A DNA stretch of 64,000 bases from an uncultured bacterium (GCA_949474265.1 CASXBC010000003.1:14083-78082); one strand, 5' to 3'; shown: positions 2,627 through 61,723, counted from the stretch's first letter. Notes: generated by a model not told the origin, from the sequence alone. Translations and numbers: made by a program.

Positions 2627-2633
2627 AATAAAT

Positions 2634-2661
2634 ATGTTAGCACATCGGCTTTAATTTTCAA
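2634..2661 (-). promoter_or_regulatory. Sigma-A promoter giving a probably leaderless transcript
   Basis: TTGAAA-16-TGcTAACAT, then 7 nt (atttatt) to the ATG. No SD. Confidence 0.45.
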
Positions 2662-2679
2662 AGTTTTTATAAAGATTTG

Positions 2680-2709
2680 TTGACTTGTTTTTGCTGTATG
2701 TGTTAAAAT
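2680..2709 (+). promoter_or_regulatory. Sigma-A promoter of the pheST leader
   Basis: TTGACT-18-TAAAAT. Confidence 0.6.
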
Positions 2710-2714
2710 AAAGT

Positions 2715-2953
2715 TGTTTATAAAAGCGATAATGAAAGACTAGTAAATGTGCAAGTTTCAGTCAGAGAGCCTGTGGTTGCTGAAAATCAGGTATGAAAAG
2801 GTGCATTGAATTCACTTTTTAGCTGAATTCTGAAATTGATAGTAGGAATCTCCGTTTAGCAATACGTAAATTGCAAATAAGTCATCTTTTGATGAGAAGT
2901 TAGGTGGTACCACGACCAAAAATCGTCCTAATATATAGGATGATTATTTTTTT
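2715..2953 (+). promoter_or_regulatory. T-box leader (tRNA-Phe responsive) with terminator
   Basis: AGAGAG at 2764-2769. GAA-UUC-A specifier candidate at 2808-2814. T-box sequence AAGTTAGGTGGTACCACG at 2897-2914. Terminator ATCGTCCTA/TAGGATGAT plus T-run at 2922-2953. Directly upstream of pheS. Confidence 0.9.
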
Positions 2954-2967
2954 ATAAAGGAGCAAAA

Positions 2968-3987
2968 ATGAAAGAAGAACTTAATCAGATTTTGAATGAG
3001 GGGACTGAAGAAATTTCTTCAGCAAGTGATCTTAAAGGTCTTGATGAAATACGTGTAAAATATCTTGGCAAAACAGGAAAGTTGACTCAAATATTGCGTG
3101 GAATGAAAGATGTTTTGGCTGAAGAGAGAAGAGAGATAGGTTCATTGGCAAACAAGGTGAGAGAAAAGATTGAGAGCTTTTTGACAGAAAAGCTTTGTAA
3201 GCTTGAAAATGAAAAACTTTTTGCTGATATGGAAAAAGAAAAAGTTGATATTACTGAGCCTAGTACAGGTACAAAGCGTGGGGCTTTGCATCCTTTGACA
3301 CGCTTCAACAATAAATTTATTGATATTTGTGTTGAAATGGGATTTAGTGTTATTCAAACTCCAGAGATTGAAACAGATTATTACAACTTTGAGGCTTTAA
3401 ATGTGCCTAAAAATCATCCAGCGAGAGATATGCAGGATTCATTGTATATTACTGATTCTATCTTAATGAGAACTCACACTTCTCCAGCGCAGGTAAGGGC
3501 TATGGAGACTCTCAAGCCTCCTTTTAAAATTGTTTGTCCTGGAAGAGTATATAGAAATGATAATGATAGCTCTCACTCTCCAATCTTCAATCAATTTGAA
3601 GCTCTTGTTATTGATGAGAATATTGGTCTTAAGGACTTTATGATTATGGTTAAAGAAATGGCTGTGCGTTTGTATGGCAAAGATGTGAAAATGAGGGTAA
3701 GACCTTCATATTTCCCATTTACAGAGCCTTCAATTGAAATAGATGCAACTTGTCAAATTTGTGGTGGTAAAGGTTGCAATCTTTGCAAGGGTACGGGCTT
3801 TTCAGAATTCTTTGGTGGCGGAATAGTAAATCCTGCCATTTTGGAAATGTCTGGTATTGACAGTACAAAATATTCAGGCTTTGCTTTTGGTCCTGGAATT
3901 GATAGAAGTGTTATGATTACAAACAAGATTCCAAATATTAAATATCTGTTTAGAAATGATATGAAATTCTTGAAGCAGATGAGATAG
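2968..3987 (+). CDS. pheS: Phenylalanine-tRNA ligase alpha subunit
   Basis: 339 aa. Class II aaRS motifs (HPARDMQDS, FPFTEPS, GFAFGPGIDR). Confidence 0.97.
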   Translation: MKEELNQILNEGTEEISSASDLKGLDEIRVKYLGKTGKLTQILRGMKDVLAEERREIGSLANKVREKIESFLTEKLCKLENEKLFADMEKEKVDITEPSTGTKRGALHPLTRFNNKFIDICVEMGFSVIQTPEIETDYYNFEALNVPKNHPARDMQDSLYITDSILMRTHTSPAQVRAMETLKPPFKIVCPGRVYRNDNDSSHSPIFNQFEALVIDENIGLKDFMIMVKEMAVRLYGKDVKMRVRPSYFPFTEPSIEIDATCQICGGKGCNLCKGTGFSEFFGGGIVNPAILEMSGIDSTKYSGFAFGPGIDRSVMITNKIPNIKYLFRNDMKFLKQMR

Positions 3988-3990
3988 AAT

Positions 3991-4040
3991 TGATGTGTTA
4001 TGTTTGCATAATACACTATATACTGTGTATTATGCAATAT
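3991..4040. repeat. Intergenic palindromic element (family copy A)
   Basis: Perfect 13-8-13 inverted repeat TTGCATAATACAC-tatatact-GTGTATTATGCAA at 4004-4037, with a partial third half-site at 3991-4003. Confidence 0.85.
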
Positions 4041-4066
4041 TTAATAAAAATAATGGGAGAAAATAA

Positions 4067-59296: not shown

Positions 59297-59301
59297 AAAT
59301 T

Positions 59302-60399
59302 TTACTCCTTATCAGTTTTTTTTGTGTCGTTTTTTGTTTTAGTAGTAGTTTTAGTTTGATTTGATTTTTTACTTGTTGAAGCAGTCTTTCTTTCCGTTTT
59401 ATTCTCTGCTTTTTTTGCTGTTGAAACTGTAGCTTTTGGTTTTGTTGATTTGGTTGTTACAGAATCTTCTTTTTTACTCTTGCTTGCAGTCTTATTTCCT
59501 GCTGCCTTTGTTGAGTTTGAAGCCTTTTTAGATTTTTGAGTACCACCTACTTTTTGTTTTGCAGTCTTTTCTTCAATCAAAACTTTAAATTCTGGTTTTT
59601 CCTCTTCAAAAGAGATTTTTGCATTGACAACTTCAAGCTCATTGCCCGCTTTATATTCAAGATTTCCAACTGCTAGCGTTCTTACAAAGTTTACTACAAA
59701 CATTCCAAATACCATAAGTGCCACAAAAAGCATGGCAATTACAAGTACAACAAAGATTACTCTAAGTGGATTGACAAATGCAAAAATGCAACCAGCACCA
59801 GCAATTGCTCCTCCCAATATCAAAGCACCAAGTGAAAACTTTAATGCGGTTTTTGTTTTGCTGAATTCTTTTTTGACAGGAGTGGTTGTTGTTTCAAATT
59901 CTGAAATGTCAACACCAACATACTTATTAATTCTTGTTGCAATCGAGATATTTGGACAAGCTTCTACAAACTCGTGCAAAAATTCTCCATAACAGATTGC
60001 TGATATATCCTCAAAAAAGCTAAATGCAAAAAATTTCTTAACTGTTTTTCTGGCAAGATTTTTAAACCATGAAACAAACCTGTTGTGATGAGCTTTAAGA
60101 GTTGTTATCTCACTTTCAGAAGAAGTAAGTTTTGTAAACTCATCATCAGTAAGCGGTCTTCTTATCACAAGCAATTTTCCTTTTGCTCTTTGACACTTTT
60201 GCAAGCCATTGATGATTTCTTCTTTGTTTGATTTGTCATCAAAGATATGGAGTTCTATATTCTCGTTGGTATACAAAAACTTTTCTTTCAAACCTTTTCT
60301 TATGCCGACATAAATATGTTTATCTTTTTCTTTATGCTTTGCAACAAATTCAGAAAAACCTTCAACATTTTCGACAATTGGTACAAAAATATTTATCAT
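59302..60399 (-). CDS. Hypothetical bitopic membrane protein with Lys/Thr/Ser-rich C-terminal tail
   Basis: 365 aa. Cytoplasmic domain of about 190 aa, 2 TM, then a low-complexity tail of about 110 aa. Start overlaps the rpiB stop. Confidence 0.55.
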
Positions 60400-60875
60400 T
60401 TGCTTTCTCCTACTTTAGTTTTTGCAACTTTTTCTTCTGAAGCCTTGCTTTCTCCTGAGATTTTCTTGAGTCTTCTTGCGTGTCTTCCACCTTCAAATGC
60501 AGTGGTAAGGAATATTTTAGCAATTTTTATTGCTTTTTTCTTTTTAAGATAGTTTGCACTAAGGCAAAGCACATTTGCATCATTATGCTTTCTTGCAAAC
60601 ATAGCCATGTCTTCATTTAAACATAATGCTGCTCTTATTTTTGGATTTCTATTTGCTGCCAAGCTCATGCCTATACCTGTTCCACAAATAAAAATTCCAA
60701 CATTGTTTTTATCTTCAAGCACTTTTGCAATACCTGTTTTTGCAAAGTCAGGATAATCCACAGGCTCTTTGCTGTAGGTTCCAACATCAATAGTAATTAT
60801 ATTTTCTTGATTGAAAAAAGCTTTAAGTTCTTCTTTCAAAGGATAACCTCTGTGATCACTTGCCATAATTATCAT
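60396..60875 (-). CDS. rpiB: Ribose-5-phosphate isomerase B
   Basis: 159 aa. ASDHRGYPLKE, GIFICGTGIGMS, FEGGRHARR. Confidence 0.93.
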   Translation of the reverse strand: MIIMASDHRGYPLKEELKAFFNQENIITIDVGTYSKEPVDYPDFAKTGIAKVLEDKNNVGIFICGTGIGMSLAANRNPKIRAALCLNEDMAMFARKHNDANVLCLSANYLKKKKAIKIAKIFLTTAFEGGRHARRLKKISGESKASEEKVAKTKVGESK

Positions 60876-61300
60876 AAAACACCTCTCAAATTTTGAATTT
60901 TATTTAAAAGCAACTCAACATTCTCTTCGATTTTCTTTGCAGATTTTATATAAGTCTCAAGGTCTTGCCCATAAGGGTCAATCACTTTACCTGCAAGCTC
61001 CTCAAAGCTCAACACTTTTGGACAGTTGACAAAACGCTTGTGGTCATTGGTAACCGTCACATAAAGACATTCTGGCTTTGTTTTTTTCAACAAGCGACTT
61101 TTCTTTTGCTTTCCGTCATAGCCAAGTTTTTTAAGTGCCAAGCAAGCATTAGTTGCACTTGGCTCCCCCTTTGACATAACACCAGCAGAAGAAAACTTAA
61201 CGTCCATAATTTTTTTAGTTTTTGCCATTTTTTTTGCAATTCGCTCTGCCATAAAAGAACGACAAGTGCCTCCGGTGCAAACAAAACAAATTTCAATCAT
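60872..61300 (-). CDS. Low-molecular-weight phosphatase (YwlE-like protein Arg/Tyr phosphatase)
   Basis: 142 aa. CTGGTCRS P-loop and DPYG. Adjacent to rpiB, as ywlE-ywlF are in Bacillus. Confidence 0.85.
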   Translation of the reverse strand: MIEICFVCTGGTCRSFMAERIAKKMAKTKKIMDVKFSSAGVMSKGEPSATNACLALKKLGYDGKQKKSRLLKKTKPECLYVTVTNDHKRFVNCPKVLSFEELAGKVIDPYGQDLETYIKSAKKIEENVELLLNKIQNLRGVL

Positions 61301-61330
61301 ATTTCACCTAAAGTGATTATAACCCAATCC

Positions 61331-61360
61331 ACAAAAAAAACAAAGCAAAATACTTTGTTT
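61331..61360. terminator. Rho-independent terminator after rsfS
   Basis: AAACAAAG-caaaata-CTTTGTTT flanked by A- and T-runs. Confidence 0.65.
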
Positions 61361-61375
61361 TTCAAAATAATATTT

Positions 61376-61687
61376 TTATATAGAAATCTTTTTTGGTTTA
61401 TATAATTTATCAAGATTATATTTATCTCTGACTTTTGCAAGGAAAATATGCACTGTTACTCCCTCAAAATCAAAAACAATCCATTCACCTTTGTTATAAC
61501 CTTCAATCTTGCCATCATAATGATAATCCTCAGCAATAATATCCGCCACCTTCTTGCTGTCTTGAACCTTGTTTGATGTGGACAAAACAACAAACTTTTG
61601 CTCAGAGTTTGTTGAAAGGTCATAAACTGACACATTTTTCATTTTGTTTGCAGACAAAAGTTCTGCAAGTGCCTTAACTTCAATCAT
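61376..61687 (-). CDS. rsfS: Ribosome silencing factor RsfS
   Basis: 103 aa. GEWIVFDFEGVTVHIF. Confidence 0.9.
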   Translation of the reverse strand: MIEVKALAELLSANKMKNVSVYDLSTNSEQKFVVLSTSNKVQDSKKVADIIAEDYHYDGKIEGYNKGEWIVFDFEGVTVHIFLAKVRDKYNLDKLYKPKKISI

Positions 61688-61693
61688 AAAGTG

Positions 61694-61723
61694 ATTTTAT
61701 CAGCAAAACCAAAGTTTTGTCAA
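61694..61723 (-). promoter_or_regulatory. Sigma-A promoter giving a probably leaderless rsfS transcript
   Basis: TTGACA-18-TGaTAAAAT, then 6 nt (cacttt) to the ATG at 61687. No SD. Confidence 0.55.

Follow-up and report, generated by a model that had tools for sequence, protein, structure and literature searches.

Seven genes in a stretch of DNA from an uncultured bacterium (GCA_949474265.1, CASXBC010000003.1:14083-78082; 64 kb, GC 33.8%, referred to below as the window) are very probably translated from leaderless mRNAs. They encode an RluA-family protein, a YgjP-like metallopeptidase, SpoIVB, a Xer-type tyrosine recombinase, RuvC, a membrane protein and RsfS, and in each case a promoter -10 element ends only 5-7 nt before an ATG start codon that has no Shine-Dalgarno (SD) sequence. 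An original prediction, made by reading the sequence alone, had proposed that these genes form a class with leaderless transcripts, and this interpretation was supported both by sequence statistics and by comparative evidence. We put the probability that at least the five sites with a strong sigma-A promoter give leaderless or near-leaderless mRNAs at roughly 0.8. The same outcome is predicted, with somewhat lower confidence, for spoIVB and the membrane protein gene.

Promoter-ATG geometry at the seven starts

All seven promoter-ATG junctions were found exactly as originally quoted once the strand was considered, with five of the ATGs on the minus strand (2626, 17281, 40179, 44768 and 61687) and two on the plus strand (14300 and 14979). 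At five sites a strong sigma-A promoter, i.e. (TGn)TAnnnT with a TTGAnA -35 element, ends 6-7 nt before the ATG. The start of the rluA-family gene (2624-2661, minus strand) reads TTGAAA (2661-2656)-16-TGcTAACAT (TAACAT at 2639-2634)-N7-ATG (2626-2624), and the open reading frame (ORF, 1742-2626) matches the RluA subfamily TIGR00005. For the YgjP-like metallopeptidase gene (14266-14302, plus strand; ORF 14300-14929, PF01863 match) the arrangement is TTGAGA-16-TGcTATACT (14285-14293)-N6-ATG at 14300, and for the Xer-type recombinase gene (17279-17315, minus strand; ORF 16244-17281, family assigned by profile match) it is TTGAAA-16-TGcTATAAT (17296-17288)-N6-ATG at 17281. The ruvC-ruvA-ruvB unit begins with TTGACA (40215-40210)-18-TAAAAT (40191-40186)-N6-ATG at 40179 (40177-40215, minus strand; ORF 39688-40179, RuvC equivalog match). 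Similarly, rsfS, which heads a long minus-strand unit (61685-61723; ORF 61376-61687, family assigned by profile match), has TTGACA (61723-61718)-18-TGaTAAAAT (61702-61694)-N6-ATG at 61687. A 70-aa ORF overlapping the xer promoter (17307-17519) was treated as spurious because it has no family match and no homolog in any relative.

The pattern TTGANA-N16-18-TANNNT-N5-7-ATG occurs six times in the window, against 1.68 occurrences expected from shuffled sequences, and five of the six matches are at the first ATG of long ORFs. It is found at 5 of the 68 gene starts compared with an expectation of 0.05 (2264 ATGs, both strands; Poisson P = 2.6e-9). A sigma-A position weight matrix (PWM) scan showed that the distance from strong intergenic promoters to the start codon is bimodal, being 6, 6, 6, 6 and 7 nt in one group and 24 nt or more in the other; intermediate distances of 0, 10 and 11 nt were all traced to over-extended ORF starts. 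Leaderless genes are recognized by a -10 element ending about 5-8 nt before the start, and the observed spacings were N=6-7 at the five sigma-A sites, N=7 at spoIVB and N=5 (or 8) at the membrane protein gene. The large bacterial type signal recognition particle (SRP) RNA encoded in the window provided a calibration (56638-56938, plus strand): in its TTGACA-17-TATAAT promoter the -10 element ends at position 56666, separated by 7 nt from the 5' end that Rfam gives for the RNA (56674-56938). The PWM scan also placed a consensus sigma-A promoter 10 nt before the T-box leader of pheS (T-box 2720-2933, plus strand). Both RNAs were found independently of the promoter predictions directly upstream of them.

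Shine-Dalgarno sequences and start codons

We calculated the duplex energy with the anti-SD sequence over the 18 nt upstream of each candidate start in the first 45 codons. At the seven reported starts the energies ranged from -2.6 to +2.4 kcal/mol (rluA -2.6, ygjP -1.4), and among the plausible starts in the first 45 codons of these genes none paired more strongly than -2.7 kcal/mol, with the sole exception of a value of -6.5 at codon 15 of xer, which lies downstream of the conserved N-terminus. The claim that purine-rich SD sequences are missing was therefore borne out, alternative starts included. In the window as a whole, 58 of the 68 genes have a start with an SD energy of -4.5 kcal/mol or stronger, and the only first-in-unit genes without an SD are the seven reported ones and one further gene at 61779 (plus strand). 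This argues, as originally suggested, for a distinct class of genes and not for a general loss of SD sequences. Two more SD-less genes (49615-50805 and 23651-24046) are operon-internal and overlap or abut the preceding gene; they were rejected as leaderless candidates, as they are probably translationally coupled.

The assertion that the start codons are not mis-assigned was likewise upheld. The NCBIfam profiles align from residues ranging from 1 (RuvC) to 28 (RluA), so no N-terminal extension is missing; the RuvC alignment, which starts at residue 1, covers the catalytic GIDPG motif, and protein conservation among orthologs begins at the proposed ATG. The start codon is ATG in 7/7 cases in the window and in 49/49 distinct ortholog regions (described below). 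Among SD-led RuvC genes from elsewhere, TTG and GTG starts also occur.

Several other candidates were discarded because their starts had been placed incorrectly. An apparent leaderless start of ruvX (yqgF) at 469 (439-486, plus strand), where TTGACT-18-TAAAAT abuts the ATG, is absent in relatives and is spurious; the true start at 484 has the arrangement TAAAAT-N15-ATG with a GGTGAT SD, preceded by GGTGATATA, which implies that the SD sits at the extreme 5' end of a putative leader no longer than about 8 nt. A candidate start of spoIIIAA at 56560 (56488-56560, minus strand) was also spurious, the conserved start being the ATG at 56488 (MLEKILPEKFF); here the sigma-E-like -10 box CATACAAT is followed by N17 containing the SD AAGGAAGGGAG, giving another very short leader. 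The candidates at 20912 and 21610 have their real starts at 20924 and 21664, both of which are SD-led.

Organization of the transcription units

All seven genes had been described as first in their units, and this description stands for six of them. The neighbours of rluA, ygjP, xer and rsfS are divergently transcribed, and in relatives the intergenic DNA can be as short as 55-62 nt. The divergent intergenic region of rsfS measures 91 nt in the window and 55-79 nt in most relatives (public gene calls), and therefore has room for one promoter only. Upstream of ruvC, an intrinsic terminator follows def and adjoins the ruvC -35 element (40238-40268, minus strand; 14-bp stem plus T-run, folding z-score -3.35), and the intrinsic terminator of alaS lies directly upstream of the membrane protein gene promoter (44815-44843, minus strand; 12-bp hairpin plus U7, -17.8 kcal/mol, z-score -4.5). 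The description fails for spoIVB, which is not clearly first in a unit because it begins 49 nt after ygjP and no terminator was found in the gap between them. Read-through from upstream operons, which the original prediction had named as one circumstance that would count against it, is argued against by the terminators before ruvC and the membrane protein gene, and allowed by the ygjP-spoIVB arrangement.

Conservation of the promoter-ATG distance in orthologs

Orthologous loci were taken from species-representative genomes and metagenomes; the spoIVB loci retained ygjP in 5 cases and xer in 13, and ruvC, rsfS and rluA orthologs were retrieved separately. Because a PWM threshold on the -10 element only gave the wrong class for distant Xer orthologs with CATAAT or GATAAT boxes, the full promoter score was used instead. 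Across 49 distinct upstream regions of rluA, ygjP, xer, ruvC, the membrane protein gene and rsfS (53-89% protein identity), the spacing was N=6 in 36, N=7 in 4 and N=5 or 8 in 6, leaving three exceptions, i.e. 46 of the 49 fall within 5-8 nt. The filler bases between the -10 box and the ATG are not conserved across these regions, and no SD appears in them. As controls, tig and a gene for a PadR-domain protein were compared in the same genomes, and there TATAAT, a 20-30 nt leader, GGAGG and the ATG were all kept. The -10 hexamer of the six families is therefore held at the distance that would place +1 on the A of the AUG, an arrangement expected of a leaderless promoter but not of a leadered, SD-independent model.

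The individual families show the same behaviour. Of 13 distinct xer upstream regions (the window and 12 orthologs, 54-88% identity), every one has an ATG start and lacks an SD. The spacing is N=6 in 12 of them, with (TGn)TATAAT, CATAAT or GATAAT as the box, and N=9 in the exception (L008). Two xer loci (L022 and L025) start 2-4 codons further in, and there the -10 box has shifted along with the ATG. TGnTATAAT-type boxes are present at N6-8 in 5/5 ygjP orthologs, TTGACA-TGnTAAAAT-N6 in 5/5 rsfS orthologs (71-88% identity) and TGnTAnnAT-N6-ATG in 4/4 rluA orthologs (53-66% identity). For ruvC, TTGACA-17/18-TAnAAT-N6-ATG occurs in 13/14 distinct upstream regions (61% identity or more, window included).

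The ruvC exception (L100/L101, positions 6001 and 4231), whose product is 75% identical to that of the window, has lost the N6 promoter and lies behind an upstream gene with an AAGGGA SD, and by its sequence it is a recent switch between the leaderless and SD-led states. At greater distance, RuvC loci with about 52-57% identity and about 47-58% GC (L105, L144, L147-L152, L154, L155 and L157), apparently from soil- or rhizosphere-type metagenomes, have TATACT or TATAAT 6 nt before the ATG, and no SD was found at these loci. The ruvC gene thus seems to be leaderless-type recurrently in unrelated lineages.

The spoIVB promoter

The spoIVB start (14942-14981, plus strand; ORF to 16157, TIGR02860 SpoIVB match) has the sequence originally quoted, TGAATA (14942-14947)-17-CATTCTA (14965-14971)-N7-ATG at 14979, but this is not a promoter of the sigma-70 type, since it matches the forespore sigma-F/G type. 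In B. subtilis the forespore sigma-F/G consensus consists of a -35 element of the GnATA type and a -10 element of the CAtAcTA type about 17-18 nt apart. When compared with this B. subtilis consensus, the window sequence has the elements, the spacing and the membership of a known forespore regulon that mark a forespore promoter, and we assign it to the sigma-F/G type on that basis. The consensus strings are not spelled out in the text of the C. difficile papers; spoIVB itself is sigma-F/G-controlled in both B. subtilis and C. difficile (PMC3789822).

GCATA/ACATA..CAnnCTA elements are present in most spoIVB orthologs. In about 13 of them a GnATA..CAnnCTA promoter ends 5-7 nt from the ATG and there is no SD, and the others have the same promoter ahead of either a GGAG-containing stretch of 14-18 nt or one of about 30 nt (leader range 14-31 nt). 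Because the orthologs share the promoter and differ in the leader, the length of the spoIVB leader is evolutionarily labile.

Two further features were seen at this locus. A 6-bp hairpin (14973-14989, plus strand; TTGCGT ATGAA ACGCAA) encloses the spoIVB ATG as part of its loop. A leaderless transcript would lack the 5' arm, whereas read-through RNA from ygjP would have it. The hairpin was dropped as a functional element, being not obviously conserved in two relatives (L007 and L009) and partly outside the leaderless transcript. In addition, the motif TTTGTCAATAG is conserved just upstream of the -35 element in many Onthoplasma-like spoIVB promoters (L030-L059, about 40-60 nt upstream of spoIVB), and could be the site of a regulator.

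The membrane protein gene and a possible eighth case

The start of the membrane protein gene (44766-44805, minus strand; ORF 44187-44768, weakly CNNM-like) had been given as TATAAT-N5-ATG with a weak -35 element. The TATAAT-N5 part was confirmed, and the site was corrected to TTGTCC..TATAAT-N5, which is atypical but conserved in 4/5 close orthologs. TTGTCC (44805-44800) lies 17 nt from a TAATAT (44782-44777; N8 to the ATG at 44768) and 20 nt from an overlapping TATAAT (44779-44774; N5). The four close orthologs (59-69% identity) keep TTGTCC..TATAAT/TATATT-N5-ATG, and the fifth (L090) retains just TATTAT-N5-ATG. Orthologs at greater distance differ at the N-terminus or have an SD.

The SD-less gene divergent from rsfS codes for a protein of unknown family (270 aa). 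It is a candidate for an eighth leaderless case, one in which the promoter would be weak or unusual. It has TGTCAAAAAT-N6-ATG at 61779 (61763-61781, plus strand) with an SD energy of +1.0, and GATTAA-N13/14-TGTCAAAAAT-N6-ATG is conserved in 5 relatives (61740-61781 in the window, plus strand). Its PWM promoter score is low.

Proposed mechanism and alternative explanations

The canonical distance from the -10 hexamer to +1 is 6 nt. Because the -10 boxes are at this distance, ending 6 nt (range 5-7) before the ATG, we infer that RNA polymerase would start at the A of the AUG or within 1-2 bases of it, using the housekeeping sigma-A holoenzyme at six of the genes and the forespore sigma-F/G holoenzyme at spoIVB. 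The resulting mRNAs would have no 5' leader and no SD, and the ribosome with initiator tRNA would bind the 5'-terminal AUG by the SD-independent leaderless route; this mode of translation, like the transcription start sites (TSSs), is deduced from the geometry. Read-through RNA would carry the AUG internally without an SD and would be poorly translated, which would tie translation of each gene to its own promoter. At spoIVB, which follows ygjP without a terminator, only RNA initiated by sigma-F/G would then be translatable.

Several points weigh against this reading. TSSs 1-3 nt upstream of the AUG would be compatible with the data, ygjP has a second promoter-like match 203 nt upstream, and spoIVB can be reached by read-through from ygjP. 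The membrane protein gene has a poor -35 element, and N5 would require a slightly short discriminator. Leaderless transcripts are also rare in mapped Clostridia, at 2-3% (PMC9045289) and 4% (PMC5171806), and those of C. phytofermentans mostly kept a ribosome-binding site (RBS) and a second upstream TSS (PMC5171806).

Three other explanations of the data were considered. The transcripts might start 1-5 nt upstream of the AUG and have very short leaders that behave like leaderless mRNAs, and N does range from 5 to 8 among the orthologs. RNA polymerase can shift its TSS by about 1-2 nt with respect to the -10 box, and very short leaders are used elsewhere in the genome at ruvX and spoIIIAA. However, the mode at exactly N=6 (36/49) places +1 on the A, which is also a preferred purine start, and the SRP RNA calibration gives N=7, so that we regard short leaders as unlikely. 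Another possibility is that transcription comes mainly from promoters further upstream or from read-through; the mRNAs would then have leaders, initiation would be SD-independent on an A/U-rich unstructured leader, and the -10 boxes would be incidental or minor internal promoters. The upstream promoter-like site of ygjP and the missing terminator before spoIVB could be cited for it, as could the additional upstream TSS usual for putative leaderless genes of C. phytofermentans (PMC5171806). It offers no reason, however, for a -10 hexamer that keeps a distance of exactly 6 nt across dozens of diverged orthologs whose flanking bases drift, and it conflicts with the terminators before the ruvC and membrane protein gene promoters and with an rsfS intergenic region of 55-91 nt that fits only one promoter. 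Low-GC Firmicutes are, in addition, strongly SD-dependent, and we consider this explanation very improbable.

The adjacency of promoter and ATG would be an artefact, or a product of chance in AT-rich DNA, if the start codons were mis-assigned and the true ones were located either upstream or, with an SD, downstream. For several other genes of the window the longest-ORF start was indeed wrong (ruvX 469, corrected to 484; spoIIIAA 56560, corrected to 56488; and 20912, corrected to 20924), and TAnnnT is common in DNA of 34% GC. But the first 45 codons of the seven genes lack in-frame starts with an SD (codon 15 of xer apart), the RuvC profile aligns from residue 1 and conservation begins at the proposed ATG, and a chance origin has to be set against P = 2.6e-9 and a decoy rate of 0.5%. 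Mis-assignment is accordingly the least credible of the explanations, and transcription starting at or next to the AUG is the reading that we prefer.

Extent of the class in the lineage

Among named relatives, the window is closest to uncultured Clostridia that carry the labels Ca. Onthoplasma, Christensenella/Christensenellales and Ca. Caccovivens. Within the window's 64 kb, 20 genes have a strong intergenic sigma-A promoter, and 5 of these genes are leaderless-type; when weaker sites are counted as well, the figure is 7-8 of about 27 units. All groups were run through one classifier, which accepted a gene if a promoter scoring at least 9 lay at N5-8 of an ATG and none of the candidate starts had an SD. 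It recovered 7.7% of genes in the window, 4.9% in a related 'mid' clade, 4.1% in a related 'Onthoplasma-like' clade and 1.1% in other Clostridia recovered via spoIVB. The last figure is at the level of decoy ATGs (0.3-1.3%), and the enrichment is significant (Fisher P = 0.002-0.005). Independent regions came only from the 'mid' and 'Onthoplasma-like' clades; the close loci are syntenic with the window and re-found the seed genes, and the fraction for the window's own genome is therefore an estimate from 64 kb. Additional families with the same architecture were found in the related clades, namely a 232-aa protein at N6 in 8 genomes, recN and ppnK-like, tlyA-like and xth-like genes, their identities being guessed from the N-termini alone.

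A broader interpretation can be put forward tentatively, as possible rather than probable. An entire lineage of Clostridia from gut and rumen, at the rank of order or family (Christensenellales-like, comprising Ca. Onthoplasma, Ca. Caccovivens and relatives) might have the mixed initiation regime typical of Actinobacteria and Deinococcus, with about a quarter of its units leaderless. This state would be fixed over deep divergence for ruvC, xer, rsfS, rluA and ygjP (and for recN and others in sister clades) and would reach promoters of sporulation sigma factors, and the leaderlessness of spoIVB would serve as an insulator that silences vegetative read-through from ygjP.

Gene finders tuned to SD sequences mis-call starts of this kind, and several public RuvC homologs of the clade are annotated 9 residues too long. 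Knowledge of leaderless starts in this abundant uncultured gut Clostridia lineage would improve the annotation of metagenome-assembled genomes (MAGs), and such starts would mark genes whose translation depends strictly on promoter choice. The spoIVB orthologs, in which the same promoter is combined with leaders of roughly 0, 8 or 25 nt, and the ruvC series, which is leaderless in the clade, SD-led in a 75%-identical relative and leaderless-type again in unrelated soil lineages, provide natural material for the study of leader gain and loss.

Genome context

The housekeeping genes of the window include pheST, recN, tig-clpPX, ruvCAB, infC-rpmI-rplT, alaS and gap, and its sporulation genes are spoIVB and the spoIIIA operon. 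A contig of the MAG GCA_948819365.1 (L006) is identical to the window (100% across 4.7 kb). The JGI contig Ga0080708_1000121 (L001, L173) has 97.7% identity to the window around ruvC and about 75% around rluA-recN (RluA 59% at the amino acid level), a pattern that probably reflects either the co-assembly of two related species into a chimera or a mosaic genome. Relatives (L172-L175, about 14600-20900) have a prophage-like block with a P22-type portal and BhlA holins beside polA, just outside the part that is syntenic with the window's left end.

Comparison with known systems

The mechanism proposed here is already known, and the finding leaves the known picture of leaderless translation unchanged; it is the description for this lineage that is new. 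We found no literature linking leaderless transcription with Christensenellales, and as the mechanism is known elsewhere, the finding consists of a new lineage and a new, well-conserved gene set. The original prediction had called a class of this size unusual for Firmicutes, which is correct in so far as mapped Clostridia reach only 2-4% and 3.4% of Firmicutes fall into group C of GeneMarkS-2, the group with frequent leaderless transcription. It needs qualification in that such genes had already been predicted in Lactococcus/Streptococcus and Mycoplasma (PMC3160421). In that study, Zheng et al. (2011) predicted leaderless genes in 56 of 209 Firmicutes genomes, at a mean of 4.2% of genes, with the cases concentrated in Lactobacillales and Mycoplasma; the word stem 'Clostridi' is absent from its text (PMC3160421).

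GeneMarkS-2 group C includes Actinobacteria and Deinococcus-Thermus, and the window resembles its members M. tuberculosis and D. deserti in having a Pribnow box 6-8 nt from the start, no RBS and putatively leaderless genes that are first in the operon, with the other genes SD-led. Two of the gene families, ruvC and recN, have been shown experimentally to be leaderless in Deinococcus deserti (PMC4007540). The window lineage differs in consisting of low-GC spore-forming Clostridia with full TTGACA/TGnTATAAT promoters, whereas the high-GC groups have a bare TAnnnT. In group C about 25-50% of operons are predicted to be leaderless, and the share estimated for the window, 5/20 strong-promoter genes or about 8 of about 27 units over 64 kb only, would lie at the lower edge of this range. 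GTG starts, which are used in Deinococcus and mycobacteria, were not seen among the leaderless-type genes of the window.

The cases in Lactococcus/Streptococcus, Oenococcus/Leuconostoc and Mycoplasma are similar in being low-GC, with TAtAAT about 10 nt ahead of the start and a strong TG upstream of it, and in involving only a few percent of genes (PMC3160421). Those organisms are Bacilli and Mollicutes, whereas the window is from Clostridia, and the conservation at ortholog level and the sporulation-sigma case go beyond that work. The mapped Clostridia (C. phytofermentans, solventogenic clostridia and C. difficile) belong to the same class and use the same types of sigma-A and sporulation sigma promoter; they differ in that leaderless transcripts account for 2-4% of TSS-associated genes, whereas the window candidates have no SD at all and make up about a quarter of promoter-proximal genes.

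The classical leaderless mRNAs (lambda cI from PRM, Tn1721 tetR and Streptomyces aph) have a 5'-terminal AUG that is read without an SD, with a strong preference for AUG. The same mechanism is proposed for the window genes. Unlike the classical examples, which are single regulatory or resistance genes, the window set consists of housekeeping and sporulation genes whose leaderless-type layout is conserved across a clade.

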